Counted from the stretch's first letter, positions 2,975-44,326 are shown. The stretch: 64,000 nucleotides of DNA from a bacterium (GCA_037128595.1 JBAXWB010000016.1:19819-83818); one strand, 5' to 3'. Program-made: numbers and translations. Notes: generated by a model from the letters alone, not told the origin.

Positions 2975-7490
<4,516 letters not shown>

Positions 7491-12113: not shown

Positions 12114-12145
12114 TTTGCTCAAGCTCTGTTATCAGGCTTGAGCAC

Positions 12146-12170
12146 GGCGCCGACGGAGCGGCGCCCTCCA
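12146..12170 (-). repeat. REP-like palindrome, type B (loop variant)
   Basis: Reverse complement reads TGGAGGGCGCCGCTCCGTCGGCGCC; intergenic between convergent genes. Confidence 0.8.
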
Positions 12171-21666: not shown

Positions 21667-21733
21667 TGGAGGGCGCCGCTCTGTCGGCGCCGGTATAAAA
21701 AAAATAGTGGTTTTGACAGAGCAAAACCCTCCA
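21667..21733. repeat. REP-like doublet (type B forward, type A reverse)
   Basis: TGGAGGGCGCCGCTCTGTCGGCGCC at 21667-21691; GGTTTTGACAGAGCAAAACCCTCCA at 21709-21733. Confidence 0.85.
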
Positions 21734-23689: not shown

Positions 23690-23747
23690 GGTTTTGACAG
23701 AGCAAAACCCTCCATTATTAAATGGAGGCCGCCGCTCTGTCGGCGCC
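23690..23747. repeat. REP-like doublet (type A reverse, type B forward), tags facing inward
   Basis: GGTTTTGACAGAGCAAAACCCTCCA 23690-23714; TGGAGGCCGCCGCTCTGTCGGCGCC 23723-23747. Confidence 0.85.
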
Positions 23748-23766
23748 GGTGCATATGGAGCCTGAC

Positions 23767-32707: not shown

Positions 32708-32866
32708 ACGGCCGCCGTTGACGTCAGCCACCGGTTGCACATGGCGTTTCTGGGTGGATCGATCACTTGGGGGGCGACGGCGACTCCACCTATTGGCCCA
32801 AGATGTCGAGAAAACCAAAATTCTGGATTTCCGGCGAGCTGGCAAAGTGACGTTATTCATAGGTGA
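32708..32866 (+). pseudogene. Possible SGNH/GDSL hydrolase remnant
   Basis: Frame reads RLHMAFLGGSITWGATATP, resembling SGNH block I, but it is bounded by stops and similarity fades afterwards. Confidence 0.35.
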
Positions 32867-32939
32867 CGAGTAGTTAGTAAAATACTATATATAAATCTAT
32901 GTCAGTGGATTTATATGGTTCGCAAAATCATCTTCCCTT

Positions 32940-33033
32940 CCAGCGGGACAAGCCCGCTGGAGAGGGTAACGCTCCCGATGGCGGCAAGCCTGCTAGGGTG
33001 GATCTTGCTCCCGATGGGCTTGTCCCATCGGGG
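32940..33033. repeat. Left hairpin cluster of the Y1 element
   Basis: CCAGCGGG-ACAAG-CCCGCTGG (32940-32960), degenerate CAAG unit (32971-33002), inverted unit CCCGATGGG-CTTGT-CCCATCGGG (33010-33032). Confidence 0.85.
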
Positions 33034-33039
33034 CTGAAA

Positions 33040-33855
33040 ATGGGCTTGGCTACACGACCGCCCCGCTATACCGCCCATAACCTCTCCAGCGCCTTCTCGC
33101 TGCGCTACGACTGGACGGGTTGGCCAAAGGAGGGAACCTCCCTGCCGCCTTCCGCAATTGATATCGCCCGCTCCCTAGCATCCCTGTGGGAGCAGGACGG
33201 ACTCCGGCTCATGGAACCACACGCCACCGCCGAAAAAATCCAACTTCTCTTCAGTGTCACCCCTGCGATCAGCCCAACCTTTTTCACGATGCGGGTGAAG
33301 GGTCGGCTCCAGCATGCCCTGCGAAAAGCGGGAACACCGGTGCAATTTAGCCGCAAGGTGTCCTTGCGTAGCCTCGGCGAGAATATCACCGCGCAGGTGG
33401 CGGGGTATCTCCATAGACAGGTCGGCAAGGAAGGTTTCGTTGACCCGCGGTTTGAGAGGATTATGAGCGAATTCACCGTAGCGTGTCCGGAGGTTGTCCT
33501 GGCGGAGCCAGCCGCCTCGAGCAGCGGGCGATATTGGTATAACCTGCATGTCGTGCTGGTCGTGGCTGATCGGTTGAGAATCACGAATCCGGTGAAGTTG
33601 GGGCTACTGCGTGATGCCGTTTTTGTCGTGGCAGAACGGACGGGTTGCCAGATTGCGGCGCTGGCGGTGATGCCAGATCATGTGCATGCGGCTGTGCGGG
33701 GGAATTACGAGATGACACCGGAGGAGATTGCGCTTGCCTTGCAGAATGGTCTGGCGCAGGCGCTTGGGTGCCGGGTGTGGCAGGACGGGTTTTATGTGGG
33801 CACGTTTAGCGAGTATGACCTGGACGTTATCCGCCGTATCGTTGGGAAATCATAA
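33040..33855 (+). CDS. Tandem double-domain Y1 (IS200-like HUH) transposase/nuclease
   Basis: 271 aa. Domain 1: SLRYDWTGWPK...EKIQLL...VKGRLQHALR...GYLHRQ; domain 2: RYWYNLHVVLV...MPDHVH...WQDGFYVGT. Codons 32899-33039 of the track ORF are hairpin-repeat DNA, so ATG 33040 is preferred. Confidence 0.82.
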   Translation: MGLATRPPRYTAHNLSSAFSLRYDWTGWPKEGTSLPPSAIDIARSLASLWEQDGLRLMEPHATAEKIQLLFSVTPAISPTFFTMRVKGRLQHALRKAGTPVQFSRKVSLRSLGENITAQVAGYLHRQVGKEGFVDPRFERIMSEFTVACPEVVLAEPAASSSGRYWYNLHVVLVVADRLRITNPVKLGLLRDAVFVVAERTGCQIAALAVMPDHVHAAVRGNYEMTPEEIALALQNGLAQALGCRVWQDGFYVGTFSEYDLDVIRRIVGKS

Positions 33856-34048
33856 TCTCCTGTCGGGCAAGCCGACAGGGGGATAATCATAATCTCCTGT
33901 CAGGTAAGCCGACAGGGGGATATGCTCCCGGGCGGGCAAGCCGAGAGGGGGATATGCTCCCGGCGGGCAAGCCGACAGGGGGATATGTTCCCGGCGGGCA
34001 AGCCGGCAACAGTGGATGTGCGCTCCCGACGGGCTTGTCCCGTCGGGG
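33849..34048. repeat. Right tandem hairpin array of the Y1 element (5 direct units plus 1 inverted unit)
   Basis: Units of 31-37 bp with core CTCC(T/C)G(T/G)CGG-GCAAG-CCGACAGGGGGA starting near 33857, 33894, 33925, 33957, 33988, then inverted CCCGACGGG-CTTGT-CCCGTCGGG (34025-34047). Confidence 0.92.
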
Positions 34049-34159
34049 CGGGAAAGTTTGTTTGCTTGCACTTGTCATGTAGCCCGCACTGTGCTGCATT
34101 ATGGGCATAAACCTCGGCATATAGGGGCGGCGTCACTTATGCATGAAAACCAACGTGTG

Positions 34160-35554
34160 CTAGTTCCTGGTCGGAAGTGAGGAAATTTCGACAACGTGAT
34201 AGGGGCCCTGATTGAATACCGGTTTAGCCGAGGCCGGCGGCTTCCACGGGAAGGGATCGGAATAGATCACCAGACTGCCGGGCTTGAGTGGTTTCGGGGC
34301 AAGCGGCAGCGGGGTAGGCCAATAGCCGGCTTTTAAAAACACCGTGCTTTCGTCAATGGCGGTCATGGCGGCAGATACCACACACGTTCGATCCTGCAAC
34401 CGGGCCCACTCCACTAAGGCGGTCAGATCTTTTTCCGGAGGCTTCTGGAATTGGATGGGCAGGAGGTGGATGGCCAGACTCAGGGCCACGACCAGCAGGG
34501 CGGTGAGGGGGAGGCCGCACCGGTACCAGTGACGCAGGGGGCGCCAGCCCCAGGTGGCGATCCCATAAGCCGAGATCATGGCCAGCATGGGGTAAAGCGG
34601 GAGTTCATAGCGGGGCCGCTTGTCCGGGAACAGGGTCAGGCTAACTGCCCAGAGGCCTGCCCATACCGACGCCATCCAAAGCATCTGGCGGTGATGCCGG
34701 GAGACGGGTCCCTGCCACCAGCGGAACAGGCCTGCGAACAGGGCAATCATCCAGGGCCAATAGGACCGCCCGATTTCAATGGCGTAATACCAGACGGGCT
34801 CGCGGTTGCGATATCCCTGCAGCCGGGCCACCACTTCATGGCCGAAGTATTGCTGGACGAAACGGTCGCCGTAGAGGTGAATCATGGAGGCGTGCCACGG
34901 CAGGGCCACGAGCAGGGCGGTAAACATGACGGTCAGCACCGGAATGAGGGAGGGCCGCTCTCGGTGTTGTCTGCCGATCAATAGCCAGCCGAGAAGAATG
35001 GGGAGCAGCATGAGCGCCATCAGCGGTTTGCACATGAGGGCCAGACCTAGCGGGAGGCCTGCGAGCCAGAACAGGTGCCGGTGTGGGCTTTTCGCGGCCG
35101 CTATCCAGATCCAGGCGGCGGCCAGCATGAACAGGAGTTGCCACATATCGAGACAGATTTCCCGTGAGCGGCGGAAAAATTCATAGCTCAAGGCCATGAT
35201 GCACCCGGTGAGCAGGGCGACGGCTCTTCCTGACAGGCGGCGGGTAATGCCAATGGTGAGGATCACGCATCCTGCGGCGGCGAATATGCCAGGGAGGCGT
35301 ACGGCGGCCAGGGTGATGCCAAACAGATGCAGGAAGAGACCGTGAATCCAGAATACCAGAGGCGGCTTGTTGAAATAGGGGACGGCGGGATGTTCGTGCG
35401 GTGTCCAGAACAGGGCCGGGTTCTGCCAGGCTTGCAGCCCCACGGCGGCATAATGCGCCGTTTCAATCCGGAAATCGCCCTGTTCAAGATGAGGCAGGGT
35501 GACCGCCAGCAGGAGCAGGACCGGCAACGCATAGATCCAAAATCGTCGTTTCAT
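34160..35554 (-). CDS. ArnT/PMT (GT39-like) membrane glycosyltransferase
   Basis: ETAHYA, YFNKPPLVFW, AVRLPGI, GLALMCK, REPVWYY, KRPRYELPLYP. Confidence 0.85.
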   Translation of the reverse strand: MKRRFWIYALPVLLLLAVTLPHLEQGDFRIETAHYAAVGLQAWQNPALFWTPHEHPAVPYFNKPPLVFWIHGLFLHLFGITLAAVRLPGIFAAAGCVILTIGITRRLSGRAVALLTGCIMALSYEFFRRSREICLDMWQLLFMLAAAWIWIAAAKSPHRHLFWLAGLPLGLALMCKPLMALMLLPILLGWLLIGRQHRERPSLIPVLTVMFTALLVALPWHASMIHLYGDRFVQQYFGHEVVARLQGYRNREPVWYYAIEIGRSYWPWMIALFAGLFRWWQGPVSRHHRQMLWMASVWAGLWAVSLTLFPDKRPRYELPLYPMLAMISAYGIATWGWRPLRHWYRCGLPLTALLVVALSLAIHLLPIQFQKPPEKDLTALVEWARLQDRTCVVSAAMTAIDESTVFLKAGYWPTPLPLAPKPLKPGSLVIYSDPFPWKPPASAKPVFNQGPYHVVEISSLPTRN

Positions 35555-35614
35555 AAGGATTGGTGCGTTGGAAGATATTGCATCTGGAGTCGGCTTGCAC
35601 TAATTTTCTGGGAT

Positions 35615-36805
35615 ATGTTAACCACGCACATCGGGAAAACAATCGAGGAACGGGCCTTTGCCGCCCTGCTGGCGACGCTCTTCGCCATCACCTTCTCGAT
35701 TGCACTGGGACAACTGTTCGCCGGCATCTGTCTGGGCCTCTTCCTCCTGGGCCTTTTCAGGAAACAGATTGTGTGGCGTAGTCCGCCCGGTAGCATGTGG
35801 GCGGTGGCCTTTATTGTCCTGGCAGTCATTCTCTCCGCCAGCCACGGGGAGGCGGCGGGACTGTGGCGGCGGGTCAGCCGGCTAGGCTGGTTTATCCTGA
35901 TCCCGGTCACCGCTTCACTGGTGAACCGGCCGGGGCGTGACTGGAAAGTGATCGCGGCGTTTCTGGCGGGAGCGGCGGTACTCGGGGTCAAGGATCTCGT
36001 GCTCTACCCGATTCTGGCCGGGCTCAAGCCGGTACCGGATTACCTTACGGCGCTCATTGATAAGGGATCGATGACGGATGGCCAGATGCTGATGCTGGGC
36101 GTTGTGGGGACGGTGTTGGTTCTAGTGATGGCGATTAAGGATCGTCGATCCATCCCCTGGTGGGGCTGGGTGCTCCTGCTGGCGCAGGTGGCGGGGTTGC
36201 TGATCAACTTCAAGCGGGGCTCCTGGTTCTGCGCGCTGATTCTGATCGGCATCATGGTGTTAATGCAGCTCCGGTGGCGCGCCTGGCTGGTCATGGTGAT
36301 AGGGGTGGTGATTTTTTGCGCCCTTCCGCCGGTTCAGACCCGGATGGGTCAATTGAAACGGGAATTTAATGTGGAGGGTGGTGGCCGGTTGACCATGTGG
36401 TTTAAAATTGCGCCCACCTTGATTCAGGAACACCCGGCCGGGCTAGGCTACGGCTGTTTGACCAACGATCAGATGCGGCAGGTGTTCAAACGGGTGGAGC
36501 CAAATCGGAATCACCTGCATGCCAATTGGGCGCAAGTGCTGGTTGAGACAGGCTGGGCGGGGCTGGCGCTGTATCTGGCCTGGATGGCGAAAATGCTGCT
36601 CAATAAACTGGCTTGGATCAGGCGCGTCCGGGGGAGAACGCTGGAGGAACGCGGGGTGGCGTGGGTGGCTTTTACCCTGCTGGTCGGTCTTTTGTTAAAT
36701 GGCCTGGTCGAGTATAATTTTGGAGACACCGAACTGGTCTTTATTTATGCTTTTCTCATGGGGTTAACAGGAGCTTGCAACAGCAAGTCTGAGTCAGTAA
36801 AGTGA
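35615..36805 (+). CDS. O-antigen ligase (WaaL-like) family protein
   Basis: Multi-TM; INFKRGSW, GRLTMW, HPAGLGYG, HLHANWAQVLVETGWAG. Confidence 0.85.
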   Translation: MLTTHIGKTIEERAFAALLATLFAITFSIALGQLFAGICLGLFLLGLFRKQIVWRSPPGSMWAVAFIVLAVILSASHGEAAGLWRRVSRLGWFILIPVTASLVNRPGRDWKVIAAFLAGAAVLGVKDLVLYPILAGLKPVPDYLTALIDKGSMTDGQMLMLGVVGTVLVLVMAIKDRRSIPWWGWVLLLAQVAGLLINFKRGSWFCALILIGIMVLMQLRWRAWLVMVIGVVIFCALPPVQTRMGQLKREFNVEGGGRLTMWFKIAPTLIQEHPAGLGYGCLTNDQMRQVFKRVEPNRNHLHANWAQVLVETGWAGLALYLAWMAKMLLNKLAWIRRVRGRTLEERGVAWVAFTLLVGLLLNGLVEYNFGDTELVFIYAFLMGLTGACNSKSESVK

Positions 36806-37218
36806 CGCGCATTATGAAGCAGGACGAAAAATCTAAAGGTAAACCGGCATTGAGTTCGGTGTTGATTCAGACCGGGGTCCCGGCGGCGGTCGGACTGGTT
36901 TTCTTTCTGGTGGGCAAGCTGATAGCCGCGAAGGTGTTGTGGGGCGTCAGCGGGGTGTTACTCATTTCCGGGTTATTCATTCCTCCCGTGTTCAACCGGA
37001 TTGAGCAGTTCGGGCGTTGGTTCGGGAAGTGGGCGGGACTAGTCATCACCTGGGTCCTGCTGGTGCCTCTATTCTTCCTCGTGTTTCTGCCCGGGCGCTT
37101 GATCTTGATGGTGCGCGGGATTGATCCGATGTGCCGGAAATTCCCGACGGATGCGCCCACCTATTGGGTCCCCCGCAAGCCGGTTACGAATCTCGAAGAA
37201 TATAAGAGGCAATTCTGA
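36802..37218 (+). CDS. SxtJ-like membrane protein
   Basis: WFGKWAGLVITWVLLVPLFFLVFLPGRLILMVRGIDPM...TYW...YKRQF, the typical partner upstream of a carbamoyltransferase. Confidence 0.75.
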   Translation: MTRIMKQDEKSKGKPALSSVLIQTGVPAAVGLVFFLVGKLIAAKVLWGVSGVLLISGLFIPPVFNRIEQFGRWFGKWAGLVITWVLLVPLFFLVFLPGRLILMVRGIDPMCRKFPTDAPTYWVPRKPVTNLEEYKRQF

Positions 37219-39047
37219 TGAATATTCTTGGAATCAGCGCGTTCTATCATGATTCTGCGGCGGCTCTGGTGTGTGACGGCGAAATCATCGCCGCCGCGCA
37301 GGAAGAGCGGTTTACCCGGAAAAAACACGACCCCAATTTCCCGTTGAATGCGGTCAAGTACTGCCTCGCAGAACTTGAAAAGCGCGGCGGCACCTTGGAT
37401 GCCGTCACCTTTTATGACAAACCCATCCGCAAGTTTGAACGGATTTTAAAGACGTACTTCAGTACGGCGCCTGCGGGCTTACCCTCCTTTATGATGGCCA
37501 TACCACTCTGGCTCAAGGAGAAGCTCTGGATCCCCATGGAGATCGAGGAAGCGCTTGAGAAGTGCGGGCTGAAAACCATTCCGCCGATCTACTTCCCCGA
37601 GCATCACGAGTCCCATGCCGCCAGTGCCTTTTTCCCGTCTCCTTTCCAGAAAGCCGCGATCCTGACGCTGGATGGAGTGGGGGAGTGGGCCACGAGCACC
37701 ATTGGCCTGGGCGATGGCAATAAGCTGGAGATCCTGCAGGATTTACATTTCCCGCATTCACTCGGGTTACTCTATTCGGCTTTTACCTATTTCTGCGGGT
37801 TCCGTGTCAATTCAGGTGAGTACAAACTGATGGGGTTGGCGCCGTATGGCGAGCCGAAGTATGTGGATGTCATCTGGGACAATCTCCTGGATATGCGTGA
37901 CGACGGCTCCTTCCGGCTGAATTTGAAGTATTTCGGGTTTGTCGATGGGCTCACCATGACCAATGACGCCTTTGCCGGGCTCTTTGGCGGGCCGGCCCGC
38001 TCCTCCGAGAGCGAAATCACCCAGCGTGAAATGGACATTGCCCGTTCCATTCAGGTCGTGACCGAGGAAATTGTGATCCGCATGGCGCGTCACGCCAAGA
38101 AGATCACAGGGGCGGATTATTTGTGTATGGCGGGCGGGGTGGCGCTGAACTGCGTGGCCAATGGCCGACTTCTGCGGGAAGGTATTTTCAAGGACATCTG
38201 GATTCAGCCAGCGGCCGGGGATGCCGGGGGCGCCTTGGGGGCGGCCCTCATGGTGGCTTACCAGGTCAAGCAGCACCCACGTCAGGCGGACAATGTGCAT
38301 GACTTCATGAAGGGCTCGCTCCTGGGGCCGGACATTGAGGATGCGGCCGTGGACGCCTTTCTCAAGGCGAATCACTATCCCGGCCACAAGTTCGAGCGTC
38401 AGCCCTGGGCGGCTGAGATTGCCCGGCTCATTGCCGCGGAAAATGTCATTGGACTGGTTCAGGGGCGGATGGAATTCGGGCCCCGTGCGTTGGGGGCGCG
38501 CTCGATTATCGGGGATGCCCGTTCACAGAAAATGCAGTCGGTGATGAACCTGAAGATCAAATACCGGGAATCGTTCCGGCCCTTTGCTCCGGCCTGTCTG
38601 GCGGAACGGGTGAGTGACTACTTCGAGTTGGACCGGCCGTCTCCTTATATGTTGCTGGTGGCACAGGTCCAAAAAGCGCGTTGCAAAGGTCTGGAGGAGG
38701 CCGGCCGGCTTTCGATCCGGGATCGCATCAATCAGGTGCGGTCGGATATTCCCGCCATTACGCATGTGGATTATTCGGCCCGGGTGCAGACGGTGTCGCC
38801 GGAGAGTAATGCCGGGTATTACGCCATTATCAAGGCCTTCGACCAACAGACCGGGTACGGGGTGATCATCAATACCTCATTCAATGTCCGGGGTGAGCCG
38901 ATTGTGTCGACCCCGGAGGATGCCTATCGCTGTTTCATGCGGACCGAGATGGATTATCTGGTCCTGGGCTCATTTATATTGTCGAAAAAAGAACAACCGC
39001 CCTGGCAGGACAAGGCCAATTGGCGGACGGAATACGCATTAGATTAA
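37218..39047 (+). CDS. NodU/CmcH-family O-carbamoyltransferase
   Basis: ILGISAFYHDSAA, EERFTRKKH, EHHESHAASAF, GEYKLMGLAPYG, EFGPRALGARS, RESFRPFAP, INTSFNVRGEP. Confidence 0.95.
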   Translation: MNILGISAFYHDSAAALVCDGEIIAAAQEERFTRKKHDPNFPLNAVKYCLAELEKRGGTLDAVTFYDKPIRKFERILKTYFSTAPAGLPSFMMAIPLWLKEKLWIPMEIEEALEKCGLKTIPPIYFPEHHESHAASAFFPSPFQKAAILTLDGVGEWATSTIGLGDGNKLEILQDLHFPHSLGLLYSAFTYFCGFRVNSGEYKLMGLAPYGEPKYVDVIWDNLLDMRDDGSFRLNLKYFGFVDGLTMTNDAFAGLFGGPARSSESEITQREMDIARSIQVVTEEIVIRMARHAKKITGADYLCMAGGVALNCVANGRLLREGIFKDIWIQPAAGDAGGALGAALMVAYQVKQHPRQADNVHDFMKGSLLGPDIEDAAVDAFLKANHYPGHKFERQPWAAEIARLIAAENVIGLVQGRMEFGPRALGARSIIGDARSQKMQSVMNLKIKYRESFRPFAPACLAERVSDYFELDRPSPYMLLVAQVQKARCKGLEEAGRLSIRDRINQVRSDIPAITHVDYSARVQTVSPESNAGYYAIIKAFDQQTGYGVIINTSFNVRGEPIVSTPEDAYRCFMRTEMDYLVLGSFILSKKEQPPWQDKANWRTEYALD

Positions 39048-39056
39048 GGAATACCC

Positions 39057-39221
39057 ATGCGCTTTTTAAAACATCTGGGACGGTTGCTTAAGGAGTTTGG
39101 GGATTTTGCCTGGCATAACAAGGCCTGGTGGATCATCCCGGTGGTTCTGGTTCTCCTCCTGCTGGGAATCTTTATCGTCGCCGGCCAGGCCGTGGCACCG
39201 TTCATCTATACGCTGTTCTAA
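39057..39221 (+). CDS. SxtK/DUF5989-like small membrane protein (54 aa)
   Basis: Manual translation MRFLKHLGRLLKEFGDFAWHNKAWWIIPVVLVLLLLGIFIVAGQAVAPFIYTLF*; SD AAGGA; ends in APFIYTLF. Below the ORF-track cutoff. Confidence 0.88.
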   Translation: MRFLKHLGRLLKEFGDFAWHNKAWWIIPVVLVLLLLGIFIVAGQAVAPFIYTLF

Positions 39222-39234
39222 GTCTGATAAAACA

Positions 39235-39308
39235 GGTTTTGACAGAGCAAAACCCTCCATTCAGGAACGTGAAATTCTTTTAATGGAGGGCGCCGCTCTG
39301 TCGGCGCC
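39235..39308. repeat. REP-like doublet (type A reverse, type B forward)
   Basis: GGTTTTGACAGAGCAAAACCCTCCA 39235-39259; TGGAGGGCGCCGCTCTGTCGGCGCC 39284-39308. Confidence 0.85.
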
Positions 39309-39314
39309 GGGGGC

Positions 39315-40028
39315 TCACGACCGCTTAATCAAGCTGGCATCCAGCTGGAGCAGGTAGCGTTTCCGGTACCAGACAAAGCCGAACAGGTCGAAAATCGTCC
39401 GGGGCAATCGCTTCATGTTGGTATACTTCGAGGCCCCCATGGTCCGTGCGCGGTGATCCACGGCGACTTCCTTGATTTTCCGGCCATTGAGTTTGAAATA
39501 GGCAGGCATGAAGCGGTGTACCCCTTCCACATGCGGCAGGTCGCTGACGCAGGCCTTGCGGAACACCTTGAGGCTGCAGCCCGTGTCACGGATGCCATCA
39601 TGGGTCGCCCAGTTGCGGACGCGATTGGCGAGGCGTGAGCCCACCCGCCGGGCCCAGGTGTCCTTGCGCTTGGCCCGGAACCCGCACACCGAGTCATAAC
39701 CGTTGAGTTCCTCGAGCATGCGGGGGATATCGGCCGGATTATTCTGAAGATCCCCGTCAATGGTCACCAGAATGTCGCCGGCCGCCATCTGGAGCCCGAC
39801 AAGCATCGCATGACTCTGGCCGCGGTTCTGGTCGTAGTGAATGCCCCGGACCGTTGAGAAGCGGGTTTGCGCTTCCAGAATGCGGGCCCAGGTCTCATCG
39901 CGACTGCCGTCATCGACCAGCAGGACTTCGAGATTGGGAATCACGCTGTGGAGTTTGTGCAGTTCTCCGGCAAGGGGCAACACATTGTCCTGTTCGTTAT
40001 AGACCGGAGCCACAATGGAAACGTTCAT
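39315..40028 (-). CDS. GT2 glycosyltransferase (polyprenol-phosphate sugar synthase/ArnC-like)
   Basis: VSIVAPVYNEQDN, VDDGSRD, NRGQS, IDGDLQNNPADIP, DTGCSLK, HRFMP. Confidence 0.88.
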   Translation of the reverse strand: MNVSIVAPVYNEQDNVLPLAGELHKLHSVIPNLEVLLVDDGSRDETWARILEAQTRFSTVRGIHYDQNRGQSHAMLVGLQMAAGDILVTIDGDLQNNPADIPRMLEELNGYDSVCGFRAKRKDTWARRVGSRLANRVRNWATHDGIRDTGCSLKVFRKACVSDLPHVEGVHRFMPAYFKLNGRKIKEVAVDHRARTMGASKYTNMKRLPRTIFDLFGFVWYRKRYLLQLDASLIKRS

Positions 40029-40033
40029 AGGGG

Positions 40034-40906
40034 TTAATACTCCTGTGCAGGGATGTACTGGTCGGAAAAAGTGAGATCCAGATTCACCAGGCGGCGGCCG
40101 CGTTCCTCGGAGGCGCGCAACGCGCTGGCCAGGGTGACCAGTTTGTGTTCGACCTTTTGCCGGAGATCGGGAAGATTCTGATCCATGTTTTCCCACCCGA
40201 CTTTGATCTTTTCGCCCGCCGTCAGGTGCATCTCGAGATAGTCTTTGGTGCTCACGTCAAGGGTGGCAATTTTAATCTGCTCTCCCAATTTCGACCGGTT
40301 ACAGAGATCGATGATTTCAATCGCATTCATGGCCGATTGGTCGACGCGGGCGCCGGGCTTGAGGCCTGCCTCGGAGCCGGTGATCACGGGATAATCGCGG
40401 CCGCCCGCCCGGAGATTGAACACGCACCCCTCGCGGTCCACGGCTAGCGTGCCCCAGCGGCCCAACCGGGCAAGCGGGATCCGCTCGACGACCTCAATGA
40501 TCAACGTGTCGGGGAGATGGCGTTGGAGTTTGACCGATTTGGCGATGGGGGCCTTGCGCAGGAAATCGGAACGCAGGGAATACAGATTTGAGGAAAACAG
40601 GTTGGTCCCTTCGCCAATGCGCATATACTCCCGGACATGCGCCGGGGAGATCGTAGGGCCCTCAATATGAATCTCAAGCTTTTGAATCGTATATTTCGGG
40701 TTTTCCCAGAACAGCACGGCCCCGAGTTTCCAGGTCAGCAGGGCCCCCATGCCAATGGCAATGACGCCTGCCAGTGGAATCCAGACGATTTTCGGCAGGG
40801 GCGGTTTTTTGTCGTTCAACCGCTGGTCGCGCCGGGTATTGATTTTCGAGGAATCGCCACGGCGCCCTTTATCCGAATCCGCCCCATCCTTCTGCTTAAA
40901 CCACAT
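40034..40906 (-). CDS. ftsQ: Cell division protein FtsQ/DivIB
   Basis: Basic N-terminus, one TM, POTRA-like region (VKLQRHLPDTLIIEVVERIPLA), directly after ddl. Confidence 0.75.
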   Translation of the reverse strand: MWFKQKDGADSDKGRRGDSSKINTRRDQRLNDKKPPLPKIVWIPLAGVIAIGMGALLTWKLGAVLFWENPKYTIQKLEIHIEGPTISPAHVREYMRIGEGTNLFSSNLYSLRSDFLRKAPIAKSVKLQRHLPDTLIIEVVERIPLARLGRWGTLAVDREGCVFNLRAGGRDYPVITGSEAGLKPGARVDQSAMNAIEIIDLCNRSKLGEQIKIATLDVSTKDYLEMHLTAGEKIKVGWENMDQNLPDLRQKVEHKLVTLASALRASEERGRRLVNLDLTFSDQYIPAQEY

Positions 40907-41837
40907 GGCGTCCTCCCACAGGCGGTGAGACCTTCGATTCCAGCGTGGCCATTTCCATAATCTGCCGGCAGAGCTCAGGGAATCCGATTCCCGCCGCGAG
41001 CGCCGCCTCCGGGAGCAGGCTGGTTTCCGTGAAGCCGGGAATATTATTGAGTTCCAATACGAACAATTCGCCGGATTCGGTCAGCCGGAAGTCCACCCGA
41101 CCCAAGCCCCGGCAACCGAGCGCGTTAAAGGTATGGAGGGCAATCGCCCGGGCTCGGTCCGCTATCTCCTGATCCAGGGGGGCCGGGCAGAGATGCCGGG
41201 AATGGCCCTTGCTGTATTTGGCGTCGAAATCGTACCAGCCGTCCGGTGCCAGAATTTCGATGGCGGGCAGGGCGGTCTGGCCCACGATGCCGACCGTCAA
41301 TTCACGCCCCGGAATAAAGGCTTCAGCGATAATTTCGCCGTCATACCGGAGCGATTCACGAAACGCGGCGGCCCATTCCTCCGGGCGGCTGACTTTAAAG
41401 ATTCCAATGGTTGAGCCCTGACAGGGCGGCTTGACCACAATCGGCAGGGGGAGGGTGAGGTGTCCGGCCGGGCCAAGGGTCTCGTAAGGCGCGGTCGGAA
41501 TACCGGCCTGTACGAACACCGCTTTGCTTAGCCGCTTGTCAAAAGAGATCCGGCTGGCATTCGGGCCGGAGCCGGTGTAGGGGAGGTGTCGGGCCTCGAG
41601 GAGTGCCTGGATCTGGCCATCCTCGCCAAACTCGCCATGCAGGGCGACAAATACGGCGTCGACGGGCTCAGGAAGCTCCAGGGACCGGCCTGTGACATCC
41701 ACTTCAATCACGTCATAGCCTGCGGCCCGCAGGCCACCGGCCACCGCGGTTCCGGACTTCAGGGAAATGCTGCGTTCCGAAGAGGGCCCGCCCTTGAGGA
41801 CGGCGACTTTTTTAAATTGTCCGGGTTTTGCTTTCAC
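40896..41837 (-). CDS. ddl: D-alanine-D-alanine ligase
   Basis: GGPSSERSISLKSG, LHGEFGEDG, YDFDAKY, LELNNIPGFTETSLLP. Confidence 0.95.
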   Translation of the reverse strand: MKAKPGQFKKVAVLKGGPSSERSISLKSGTAVAGGLRAAGYDVIEVDVTGRSLELPEPVDAVFVALHGEFGEDGQIQALLEARHLPYTGSGPNASRISFDKRLSKAVFVQAGIPTAPYETLGPAGHLTLPLPIVVKPPCQGSTIGIFKVSRPEEWAAAFRESLRYDGEIIAEAFIPGRELTVGIVGQTALPAIEILAPDGWYDFDAKYSKGHSRHLCPAPLDQEIADRARAIALHTFNALGCRGLGRVDFRLTESGELFVLELNNIPGFTETSLLPEAALAAGIGFPELCRQIMEMATLESKVSPPVGGRHVV

Positions 41838-41933
41838 GGTTTATCCTGAAACTAAAAATTGACGGTTTATTAAATAACGGCTGGCGCCGCTTGTCACAAG
41901 AAAATTATGAGGGGAGCTTGGGGGCGGGCGGGG

Positions 41934-43754
41934 TTAAATATAGAGTTTTAGAACGGCCTCGCCGGTATCCCAGCGCTTTAAACGGTTGATATCGGTGGTG
42001 AGTTGAGCCCATTGCGCTGAAAGTTCGTCGCGGGCCGGGTCATCCGTGGCGGCGTGAAGCTGTTGTTCTACCTGGATACGCCGGGTCTGCAGTTCAGTGC
42101 GCCACATTCCCAGGATCAGGCCTTCAACGGCCTGGCGGTCATTTCCTTCCAGTCCTGCCTTGTGGGGGGCGCTCAGGACCTGGGCGGCAAAGGTGGACAG
42201 GTTGCGATCCGCATCGTCCCGTTCCGTGAGCAGTTGCATGACATCCACGCCTTCCCGTGAACTATCCCGCAGCACCTCGAGAAAGGCGCGGCAGGTGGGG
42301 TCGGTGATCATGGTGAAGGGGAGAAAGAGTTCCATGATGGTGACCAGGTCCGGATTGGTGCCAAGATGTTCCGCCAGCAGTACTTCGCTGACCGGCCGCT
42401 GGACGGGGGCAGGCTGGGTGCCGGTGTCGGGGGCAGGGGGCGGGGCATTTCGCCGGAGGTGCCGGAGTTCGACATTCAGGGCATCCGCGGAAACGCCCAG
42501 CCGCCGAGCCACGGTCTGGACCAGGACGTCGCGCTGGATGGCGTTGGGGCTCTGGCTGATCGTGGCCAGGGCCGCCCGGCTGACCTTCATCATTCCCACT
42601 TCGGAGCGGATGTCCTCCTGGCTCAACAACAGGTTCAGTTGGAAGTCGATGGCAGGGACCGCCTGGGAGAGGGCTTTGGCGAAGGCGGGCGCCCCCTGCT
42701 TCAAAATGAGCGAATCCGGATCCTCGCCCTGCGGCAGGCTGGCCACCCTCACGGCCAGTCCCATCTGCATGAAGACGGCAGACGCCTTGAGCGCGGCGTT
42801 GCGTCCGGCATCATCAGAGTCAAACACCAGTACCACGCCATCGGCGTACCGCTTCAGCATGCGCGCGTGATCCTCTGTGAAGGCGGTGCCCTGGGCGGCC
42901 ACCGCGGTTTTGAATCCCGCCTGATGGCAGCGGATCACATCAATCTGGCCTTCACAGATAATCGCCTCGCGGGTTTCAACGATTTCCCGGCGCGCGCGGT
43001 CAAGGGCATAGAGGATATGGCTTTTCCGGAATAACGGGGTTTCCGGGCTGTTGACATATTTGGCGGCCTTCGGGTCTTGCAACAGCGTGCGTCCGCTGAA
43101 GGCCACAATCCGGCCCTGCTCATTGCGGATGGGAAACATGATCCGGCCCCGGAACCGGTCGTAGTAGGGCTGGGAGCCGCGATCCTCCTCCCGCCGGATG
43201 AGCAGGCCGGCGAGATCCAGTTTCTGAAGCGCATGGCCCTTTTTGAGCGCCCACTGCAGGAGAAAGTCCCAGGAATCCGGGGCGTAGCCGATCATGAAGT
43301 CTTCAATGACTTCCGTCGTGAGCTGCCGTTTGTTCAGATACTCCCGGGCGATCAGGGCATCAGGGTTCTGCAACAACTGCCGGTGGAAAAGCGCCGCGGC
43401 TTCTTCATGGATGGTCAGCAGGATTTCCTTGTCTGCGGAGGGTTCCGAGCCCTTTTCGAACTGAAGGGGAATGCCGGCTTTTTCGGCCAGGATCTTGATG
43501 GCGCCAATGAAGTCGACATGCTCGTAAAGCATCACAAACTTGAACACATCGCCGCCTGCGCCACAGCCGAAACAATGGAAGATCTGGCGTTGCCGGTTGA
43601 CGTTGAAGGAGGGGGTCTTCTCCTTGTGGAAGGGGCAGAGGGCCTTGATGATGTTCCCCTTCTGCGGCAGGGTGAGATAGGCGTCAATGACATCGACAAT
43701 ATCGCAGCGGAAGCGGATATCGTCCAACACGGATTTAGAGATGAGGCCGGCCAT
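41934..43754 (-). CDS. dnaG: DNA primase
   Basis: CPFHKEKTPSF...CFGC zinc finger, KYVNSPET, EGQIDV, FDSDDAG, DPD. Confidence 0.95.
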   Translation of the reverse strand: MAGLISKSVLDDIRFRCDIVDVIDAYLTLPQKGNIIKALCPFHKEKTPSFNVNRQRQIFHCFGCGAGGDVFKFVMLYEHVDFIGAIKILAEKAGIPLQFEKGSEPSADKEILLTIHEEAAALFHRQLLQNPDALIAREYLNKRQLTTEVIEDFMIGYAPDSWDFLLQWALKKGHALQKLDLAGLLIRREEDRGSQPYYDRFRGRIMFPIRNEQGRIVAFSGRTLLQDPKAAKYVNSPETPLFRKSHILYALDRARREIVETREAIICEGQIDVIRCHQAGFKTAVAAQGTAFTEDHARMLKRYADGVVLVFDSDDAGRNAALKASAVFMQMGLAVRVASLPQGEDPDSLILKQGAPAFAKALSQAVPAIDFQLNLLLSQEDIRSEVGMMKVSRAALATISQSPNAIQRDVLVQTVARRLGVSADALNVELRHLRRNAPPPAPDTGTQPAPVQRPVSEVLLAEHLGTNPDLVTIMELFLPFTMITDPTCRAFLEVLRDSSREGVDVMQLLTERDDADRNLSTFAAQVLSAPHKAGLEGNDRQAVEGLILGMWRTELQTRRIQVEQQLHAATDDPARDELSAQWAQLTTDINRLKRWDTGEAVLKLYI

Positions 43755-43762
43755 GGGAACGG

Positions 43763-44326
43763 TTATTCTTCCCATTTCTCGCGCTTGCCGGCGCGTTCCT
43801 GACGGGCTTTTTGAATGATCCCCTCGCCGGTTTCCACCCGCGAGGTGAGCTTCTTGATGAGCTCGTTTTCGGCGCCAAGCACTTCGCGGGCGATCCATGA
43901 TTGTTGGCCGATCGCTACCGGACGATGGTCCTCAGGAAGGACATTGAAAATCACAAAAACCAGCAGGACGAGTCCGGCCGTGGTTAATCCGCCGGCAATG
44001 GCGCCGCCAAGCCGGTCGATCCAGGTGGTAAAGGTGATTTTGAGCATGTAGCGAAGGAACGCGTAGAGCATCATGACGGTGAGGATGGGAATCACGACGA
44101 GCAGGATCAGGGTGGCCAGCCGGGCCAGTTCCGCCGGCATGGCAAACTGGGAGACCAGCCAGTCACGGGTCGGGGTGAACCCGTTGACCAGGGCCGCCGT
44201 GACGGACAGGACGGAGAGGACCATCGCCATCTGCCCTGAGAGGCCCTGTCGGAATCCCATGATGACGCCAATCAGGATGACGCCAATCCCGATCACATCT
44301 GCAATGGTGAAGCCTAGGTTTTGCAT
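43763..44326 (-). CDS. cvpA: CvpA (colicin V production) family membrane protein
   Basis: DVIGIGVILIGVIMGFRQGL, DRLGGAIAG. Confidence 0.75.
   Translation of the reverse strand: MQNLGFTIADVIGIGVILIGVIMGFRQGLSGQMAMVLSVLSVTAALVNGFTPTRDWLVSQFAMPAELARLATLILLVVIPILTVMMLYAFLRYMLKITFTTWIDRLGGAIAGGLTTAGLVLLVFVIFNVLPEDHRPVAIGQQSWIAREVLGAENELIKKLTSRVETGEGIIQKARQERAGKREKWEE

Follow-up and report, generated by a model that had tools for sequence, protein, structure and literature searches.

The closest described systems to the locus reported here are the REPtrons of Escherichia coli and Pseudomonas, in which a single-copy gene for a Y1 transposase of the HUH (histidine, hydrophobic residue, histidine) type is flanked by inverted copies of cognate repetitive extragenic palindromes (REPs), the enzyme being known as a REP-associated tyrosine transposase (RAYT) (PMC2817692, PMC3333891, PMC3116915). 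Tandemly reiterated REP clusters are also on record (PMC3733652), as are differences in cluster size from strain to strain (PMC2817692, PMC3333891, PMC3733652). The E. coli enzyme, TnpAREP, binds single-stranded REP, cleaves in inverted REP and linker and recombines them in vitro, and the authors of that work proposed this recombination as the basis for the amplification of bacterial interspersed mosaic elements (BIMEs) (PMC3333891). We investigated a 64,000 nt stretch of DNA from a bacterium (GCA_037128595.1 JBAXWB010000016.1:19819-83818; hereafter the window, with positions counted from its first letter) in which an array of hairpins at 33849-34048 directly follows a gene encoding a Y1/HUH protein. 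The array is genuine and biologically meaningful, and is best read as a REP/BIME-like cluster and not a polar, leader-like array. It probably forms the hairpin cluster at the 3' side of a REPtron-like locus, that is, of a single-copy, domesticated Y1 (HUH) transposase gene standing between inverted sets of cognate REP-like hairpins. The locus is apparently an undescribed form of the known REP/RAYT kind, with an enzyme that looks like two fused half-enzymes.

To place the locus in a wider context, we collected homologues by a pattern-seeded scan of one genome per species, which yielded 80 homologous loci, mostly in Kiritimatiellia, Verrucomicrobiota, Lentisphaerota and Planctomycetota. Nearly all come from different genomes, with only one genome supplying two loci, and the gene is thus near single-copy. 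Hairpins lie against both gene ends at almost every one of these loci. An earlier note on this DNA, made from the sequence alone, had tentatively tied the array to the adjacent HUH gene, and this association is supported by such hairpins abutting both ends of homologous genes throughout the Planctomycetota-Verrucomicrobiota-Chlamydiota (PVC) phyla. For the layout counts, a unit detector combining position weights with pairing (378 matches in real sequence vs 2 in 810 kb of reversed sequence) was used on the 61 loci with at least 300 nt of flank on either side. A reverse unit abuts the start codon at 45 of these loci and a forward unit abuts the stop codon at 38, with both called at 32. Downstream runs of 1, 2, 3 and 4 units were found at 19, 8, 10 and 1 loci, respectively, while upstream runs reach up to 10 units. 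The array is closed by a unit of opposite orientation, as it is in the window, at 15 loci downstream and at 22 loci upstream. The units on either side point their 5' flanks at the gene, over the stop codon downstream and over the start codon upstream. At a Lentisphaerae relative (L013, about 4790-4870), the downstream hairpin pair is followed by the 3' end of a candidate tRNA gene on the opposite strand.

Read 5' to 3', a unit consists of a RAWCTK flank, about 5 nt, a C-W-CC foot, a variable stem of 6-8 bp, the loop RCRAG, the return stem and GGGG(T/A)C. Position counts over 102 units show conservation of the loop, of the foot (CWCC...GGGG), of the (T/A)C tail and of RAWCTK about 9 nt before the foot, and the conserved 5' flank of the unit spans about 21-27 nt. 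The stems vary by lineage yet stay complementary, with compensatory changes in 8 of 9 stem pairs. Stem cells are paired in 94.8% of cases vs 28-53% when the partners are slid, although the units were picked as hairpins and this percentage is therefore partly given by construction, the covariation being the informative part. A covariance model (R1) was built from 70 hairpin units of homologous loci, two of them from the window locus, and it detected six units at the window locus with E values from 1e-7 to 0.04.

Units of the same kind are also found away from the gene. In 601 kb of sequence flanking the homologous loci, the detector placed 31 units at distances above 900 nt from the gene, often as inverted pairs in intergenic gaps, such as the pair 3.5 kb downstream in a 76% relative. 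A 28-mer unit that borders the gene in three planctomycete genomes is present, as an exact match, in at least 120 metagenome contigs of the Joint Genome Institute (JGI); among the 120 contigs listed (518 kb), none contains a homologue of the gene. These contigs hold 333 units, for which the commonest clusters are '--++' (29) and '-+' (21), with adjacent '+-' occurring only twice, and 30% of the units fall in open reading frames (ORFs) of at least 200 aa vs 81% of bases. The '--++' and '-+' clusters indicate that the gene-less elements have the polarity of the gene locus minus the gene, similar to the relation between RAYTs and the REP doublets forming hairpins (REPINs), which resemble miniature inverted-repeat transposable elements (PMC3116915). 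In relatives and metagenome contigs, the hairpins occur as extragenic singlets, inverted doublets and gene-less clusters, which likewise resembles REPtron systems. Among the metagenome loci (L086-L205), the '--++' clusters, two reverse units and then two forward ones, have a period of about 69 nt, and one locus (L152) has about 15 forward units in tandem. In planctomycete lineages (L104 1-270, L112 2780-2910, L063 2860-3110 and 3880-4040), an outer GCTAGC lies about 27 nt 5' of each hairpin. This palindrome is the centre common to head-to-head gene-less doublets, and its TAG is the stop codon of the gene in these lineages. GCTAGC is a candidate for an element boundary or a cleavage site.

Within the window, Tandem Repeats Finder reported a period of 37 with 2.2 copies and 93% matches at 33844-33922, and a period of 31 with 3.2 copies and 94% matches at 33906-34005. 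In two further assemblies, the whole array is covered and its sequence is the same as in the window, and a third contig, likewise identical, stops within unit 1; an assembly artefact was thereby ruled out, and the array described in the note is real. The 37-bp duplication that the note described is also present, with 33849-33885 and 33886-33922 identical at 35 of 37 positions and TCATAA, which contains the gene's stop codon, in both; the TAA itself (33853-33855) sits within the 5' flank of D1 (Table 1). The closing hairpin of opposite orientation is perfect, as had been stated, with a predicted DNA fold of -12.6 kcal/mol (z -5.0). The statement that each of the five direct units folds held for the first two only. 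Unit 1 (-9.6 kcal/mol, z -5.1) and unit 2 (-6.7 kcal/mol, z -3.4) fold better than shuffled sequence, whereas units 3, 4 and 5 do not (z +0.3, -1.5 and -0.6). The outward decay of pairing in this particular array is thus real, and D4 is the only one of D3-D5 scored by the covariance model (19.2 bits).

A second, smaller array that was absent from the earlier note lies upstream of the gene at 32926-33045, so that the locus reads + (+) - [gene] + + (+ + +) -, where brackets around units mark degenerate ones. The predicted DNA folds of the two intact upstream hairpins are -11.7 kcal/mol (z -6.5) for Ua and -11.4 kcal/mol (z -5.5) for X-up. With its 5' flank, X-up reaches over the ATG at 33040, and the GGGG in its stem stands 6-9 nt before that codon. 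A candidate promoter was found by consensus scan only, which is weak evidence. It lies in an AT-rich stretch 5' of the upstream hairpins, and this stretch is kept in a relative whose protein is 96% identical (L084), which is colinear with the window from 32821.

Table 1. Positions of the gene, hairpin units and candidate promoter in the window
Feature	Position	Strand	Description
Candidate promoter	32856..32883	+	TTCATA-16-TAAAAT
Upstream unit Ua	32926..32974	+	Perfect hairpin 32939-32961, TCCAGCGGG-ACAAG-CCCGCTGGA; covariance model 36.8 bits, E 5.5e-7
Upstream unit Ub	32971..33006	+	Degenerate chimera, does not fold (z +0.85)
Upstream unit X-up	32997..33045	-	Perfect hairpin 33010-33032; covariance model 39.1 bits, in training set
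Two-domain Y1/HUH protein gene	33040..33855	+	271 aa
Downstream unit D1	33845..33893	+	Hairpin 33857-33881, CTCCTGTCGG-GCAAG-CCGACAGGGG; covariance model 39.8 bits, in training set
Downstream unit D2	33886..33922	+	Hairpin 33896-33916, one mismatch; covariance model 17.2 bits
Units D3, D4, D5	33923..34021	+	Period 31-32; chimeras, poor hairpins
Closing unit X-down	34012..34060	-	Perfect hairpin 34025-34047; covariance model 35.5 bits, E 1e-6

We compared the window to the same relative over its whole colinear length, which covers 32821-33885 and 34146-44124 at 93% nucleotide identity. The window stretch 33886-34145 is missing from the relative, which downstream of the gene has one intact unit and a decayed remnant vs the window's five units and inverted hairpin, and upstream has one degenerate unit more than the window. 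In the 76% relative, two hairpins enclose four degenerate units upstream of the gene, and two units follow downstream. Given the differing counts in these two relatives, unit number is not fixed, in line with the earlier note's picture of an array that gains units, and it changes quickly on both sides of the gene. Copy number differing between related strains, and a syntenic position in a close relative that suggests vertical inheritance, are both features of REPtrons, while the short linkers and polymorphic unit number are shared with BIMEs and tandem REP clusters (PMC3333891, PMC3733652). Further upstream, a 66-nt stretch (window 32719-32784, L084 7511-7576) is 82% identical between the two genomes, and on the L084 side it lies inside a GDSL-lipase gene. 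The upstream neighbours are otherwise unlike, and the stretch may be a gene remnant marking a rearrangement beside the hairpin cluster.

The degenerate units bear on how the array grew. By hand alignment, the 5' arm of D3-D5, GCTCCCGGCGGG, agrees with the inverted hairpin's arm at 11 of 12 positions and with that of D1 at 9 of 12, and these units then continue with a D1-type loop, 3' arm and GGGGGATA tail. Similarly, the first 11 of 11 nt of Ub are those of the X-up hairpin's 5' arm, and the remainder resembles the Ua loop and 3' arm. The upstream units of the 76% relative are hybrids of a like kind, and chimeric units at the position of Ub number 2 in L084 and 4 in L085. On the evidence of this alignment, D3-D5 are chimeras of forward and inverted hairpins and not decayed copies of unit 1, which implies that the segment duplicated within the array extends from a forward hairpin's loop to that of the reverse hairpin following it. 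The junctions of the chimeras lie at CGGG/TGGG, which is common to the loop edges of forward and reverse hairpins. Compared with a classic BIME, in which REP and inverted REP alternate, the window array instead has five forward units and one inverted unit, with three of the five being half-and-half chimeras; the chimeric junctions themselves are compatible with inverted REP-linker recombination, the process proposed for BIMEs.

These chimeras do not fit the insertion of whole new units at the gene-proximal end, which the earlier note had proposed. That part of its model finds no support in the anatomy of the flank either. The repeat takes in the stop codon because the end of the gene is overlapped by the unit's conserved 5' flank, and the presence of this codon is no mark of growth from the gene; gene-less copies carry that 5' flank too, including CTGATTCACC with its TGA, or TAG. 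Furthermore, among 22 arrays of at least three units, pairing is better in the gene-proximal unit than in the distal one in 9, no different in 9 and poorer in 4, which is not a significant gradient, and similar arrays of up to about 15 units occur with no gene nearby. Amplification by the enzyme, the other half of the proposal, retains a published precedent in the recombination carried out by TnpAREP in vitro (PMC3333891).

Hairpins are classic hot spots for replication slippage, and the tandem units could in principle have arisen purely by enzyme-free slippage or unequal recombination between neighbouring hairpins, with the gene uninvolved. The junctions of D3-D5 and Ub at a motif common to the hairpin loop edges, as well as the GGGAAA and GGGATA that bound the 37-bp duplication, would be expected from such a process. 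Slippage or template switching and TnpAREP-type inverted REP-linker recombination fit the chimeras equally, however, as the latter would give the same chimeras (PMC3333891). Moreover, slippage explains the growth of arrays, but neither the presence of hairpins at both gene ends in dozens of distant genomes nor their dispersal. That the tandem units arose by slippage alone, with no part played by the gene, is in our view a serious alternative but less likely than not.

Under the REPtron-like reading, the binding, the cleavage, the strand used and the duplication process are all inferred. The enzyme would bind a hairpin in single-stranded DNA, cut nearby through a phosphotyrosine intermediate and rejoin the ends. 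Cutting and rejoining would mobilise gene-less hairpin sets in trans, and the action of the enzyme together with replication slippage between neighbouring hairpins would expand and contract local clusters, which would yield differing unit numbers in close relatives.

The gene most likely begins at 33040, and the database ORF, which starts at 32899, is probably over-extended through the upstream array. We prefer the later start because homologues align only from about residue 8 counted from it and full-length members have about 265 aa; the annotated N-termini of the homologues are variable, repeat-rich read-throughs of similar arrays. In the window (32899-33039) and in homologues P0002, P0008, P0108 and others, gene callers run the ORF through the upstream hairpins, and the resulting false N-termini consist of 12-aa repeats, e.g., KPAGEDLAPDGP five times over in P0002. 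Many of the gene-bearing contigs are only 1-3 kb long, which suggests that assemblies break at the arrays.

The Pfam model Y1_Tnp matches only the C-half of the protein (46.7 bits vs a cut-off of 23). When a profile of 40 homologues was searched against the PDB, the C-half matched 2F4F (E 3e-10) and the N-half matched IS608 TnpA (E 1e-3, or 8e-4 when the N-half was searched alone), while TnpAREP (4ER8) was matched only weakly (E 0.38). AlphaFold produced a model of two beta-alpha-rich domains (pLDDT 85, pTM 0.84), and its best PDB matches are the IS200, ISDra2 and IS608 TnpA structures, covering one domain each. Calling the protein two-domain is based on each half separately matching TnpA structures; a profile-profile alignment of the N-half to the C-half was too weak (E 0.28), and in it the K-I-Q of the N-half did align with the H-V-H of the C-half. 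The N-half (about aa 8-140) contains Y123 and Q127, both invariant; in IS608 and ISDra2 TnpA, the residues aligned with them are the catalytic Tyr and the metal-ligand Gln. HUH has been lost from this half, with the corresponding positions reading K-V-Q in the consensus of the family and K-I-Q in the window protein. Both His of H214-V-H216 in the C-half (about aa 160-271) are invariant, and the canonical Tyr position of this half is not a Tyr. The Y1 fold, HUH and a catalytic-type Tyr are therefore all present, with the Tyr and HUH in separate halves. A Pro following the HUH strand is a key dimer-interface residue in IS608 TnpA (PMC3479197); an invariant Pro of the N-half aligns with it, and the C-half has the invariant P227 shortly after its HUH motif. 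We would like to note an additional invariant Tyr, Tyr259 (33814-33816), which is in a C-terminal GTFSEY motif before a low-confidence terminal helix and off the canonical catalytic position.

TnpA proteins of the IS200 family are obligate dimers whose active sites combine the HUH of one subunit with the Tyr of the other (PMC3479197). On this basis, and judging from the residues retained, the protein looks like a fused dimer keeping one composite active site, in which the N-half would give the nucleophilic Tyr123 and metal-ligand Gln127 and the C-half His214 and His216, making one IS200-type trans site within one chain. We put forward, tentatively, that it may be a pseudo-dimer in a single chain and may represent a class of REP-associated Y1 enzymes that has not been described before, with a domestication separate from that of the classic RAYTs. 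The IS200/IS605 TnpA proteins (IS608, ISDra2; PDB 2VHG, 2XM3) are its best sequence and fold matches and share HUH and Y-x3-Q. However, they are homodimers of subunits of about 130-160 aa with two trans sites, whereas here only one composite site can be complete and each half of the 271-aa chain matches a whole TnpA chain. The protein also differs from the REPtron enzyme TnpAREP, which is a 165-aa monomer (PMC3479197). No class with two domains appears in a wide survey of TnpAY1 proteins (PMC6006769). Class 3 of that survey, described as intermediate between IS and REPtron (Quentin et al. 2018; PMC6006769), is found in Planctomycetes and Acidobacteria and resembles the present family in having PVC and acidobacterial hosts and a Y-x4-Q-type motif near IS200. 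Class 3 proteins, in contrast, have a median length of 178 aa, NHVH, W[TA] and YV[VI]xEQ motifs and a CnGA foot, whereas the present protein has two domains in 271 aa, the motifs DHVH and WQD, a Y[IL]xxQ motif located in the other half, and hairpins with a CWCC foot. A full-text literature search found no two-domain or pseudo-dimeric Y1 transposase, which is absence of evidence and not proof of novelty.

A different possibility is that the hairpins act mainly as RNA, as structures in the untranslated regions (UTRs) of the gene's own mRNA, with the array a by-product; the downstream hairpins would stabilise or terminate the transcript, and the upstream one would keep translation down by sequestering the ribosome-binding GGGG. 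A promoter-like site at 32856-32883 would place the units in the likely 5' and 3' UTRs, and the 3' arm of the upstream hairpin does end in the GGGG just before the ATG. REPs are also known to affect mRNA stability (background in PMC3479197). Nevertheless, no U-tract follows any of D1-D5, the closing hairpin is the only terminator-like match, and Rfam gave no match above threshold, and intrinsic terminators and known RNA families were rejected on these grounds. The units also turn up in either orientation and at a distance from the gene, and an RNA function leaves both the conserved non-pairing flanks and the link to a DNA-cutting enzyme unexplained. We regard RNA as the main level of action as improbable, though an RNA-level role can coexist with a REPtron-like locus.

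The locus might also be considered an autonomous insertion sequence (IS) of the IS200/IS605 type, in which the hairpins at 33007-33040 and 34022-34055 would form the left and right ends and the tandem units would be internal. These two hairpins are indeed direct repeats of 88% identity that bracket the gene 1015 nt apart, and the protein is nearer to IS200 TnpA than to E. coli TnpAREP. Each of the two, however, belongs to a '+-' pair on its side of the gene, and throughout the family the units closest to either end of the gene are inverted and not on the same strand. Of the genomes behind the 80 loci, all but one have a single copy of the gene rather than several; the gene occupies a syntenic position in the relative of 93% nucleotide identity, and tnpB is absent. 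Copies without the gene take the form of '-+' or '--++' sets, and the product is a 271-aa fused two-domain protein instead of a dimer subunit of 130-150 aa. Copy number, synteny and the inverted layout seen across the family led us to reject the left-end/right-end reading, and we find an IS of this type very improbable here. Lastly, a CRISPR-like or other spacer-acquiring array, as might be suggested by regular direct repeats with a palindromic core and an adjoining nuclease-fold gene, can be dismissed, as the earlier note had already concluded, because the linkers are only 4-10 nt and themselves part of the repeat, no unique spacers of similar length exist, the same element occurs singly and in inverted pairs elsewhere, and there is no Rfam CRISPR match.

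Several results nevertheless weigh against interpreting the locus as REPtron-like. No GTAG or CGTC tag, as is typical of described REPs (PMC3733652), appears in the position counts of the 102 units, which instead have the conserved loop, foot and long 5' flank given above. The protein scores 22.7 bits with the curated RAYT model (NCBIfam NF047646), far below the cut-off of 80, and the curated IS200 model (NF033573) gives 46.7 bits vs a cut-off of 55, from the C-half only. Long runs of same-orientation units abutting the gene, and hosts from the PVC phyla, also set the locus apart from REPtrons. Regarding dispersal, no other copy of the unit was found in the 64-kb window by exact, 3-mismatch and 27%-mismatch searches, a generic hairpin regular expression or the unfiltered covariance model, for which nothing outside the locus scored better than E 0.3, and no unit was found outside the locus in 21 kb of the 96% relative. 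The metagenome copies are not assignable to genomes that carry the gene. Finally, enzyme-free slippage accounts for the chimeric units equally well.

The window contains a second palindromic repeat, TGGAGGGCGCCGCTCTGTCGGCGCCG, with the stem GGCGCCG and the loop CTCTGT, at 12145-12170 (-), 21667-21692 (+), 23723-23748 (+) and 39284-39309 (+). None of these four copies in 64 kb would be expected by chance, and the repeat is also present in the 96% relative (L084 16015-16054). When checked against the covariance model, it proved unrelated to the locus hairpins. It resembles an independent family of REP-like elements, for which the window offers no obvious partner gene.

There is as yet no settled view of how REP elements spread, and for the monomeric E. 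coli enzyme, with its one active site, it is unclear how two cuts are coordinated (PMC3479197). The enzyme described here is intermediate between IS200 transposases, which are dimeric, and RAYTs, which are monomeric, and a natural fused dimer with one complete active site would be a ready-made test case, tied to hairpin sets of defined architecture. The two hairpins per side of the gene-less '--++' elements may match the two-domain enzyme. If the pseudo-dimer is real, its two hairpin-binding faces could explain this pairing and could also explain the build-up of arrays at the gene. On a practical level, gene callers that cross upstream arrays yield false, repeat-rich N-termini, and assemblies tend to break at such loci. 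More broadly, the family would add Kiritimatiellia, Verrucomicrobiota, Lentisphaerota and Planctomycetota to the groups with REP-type genome structuring, through a type of hairpin outside the GTAG/CGTC classification.

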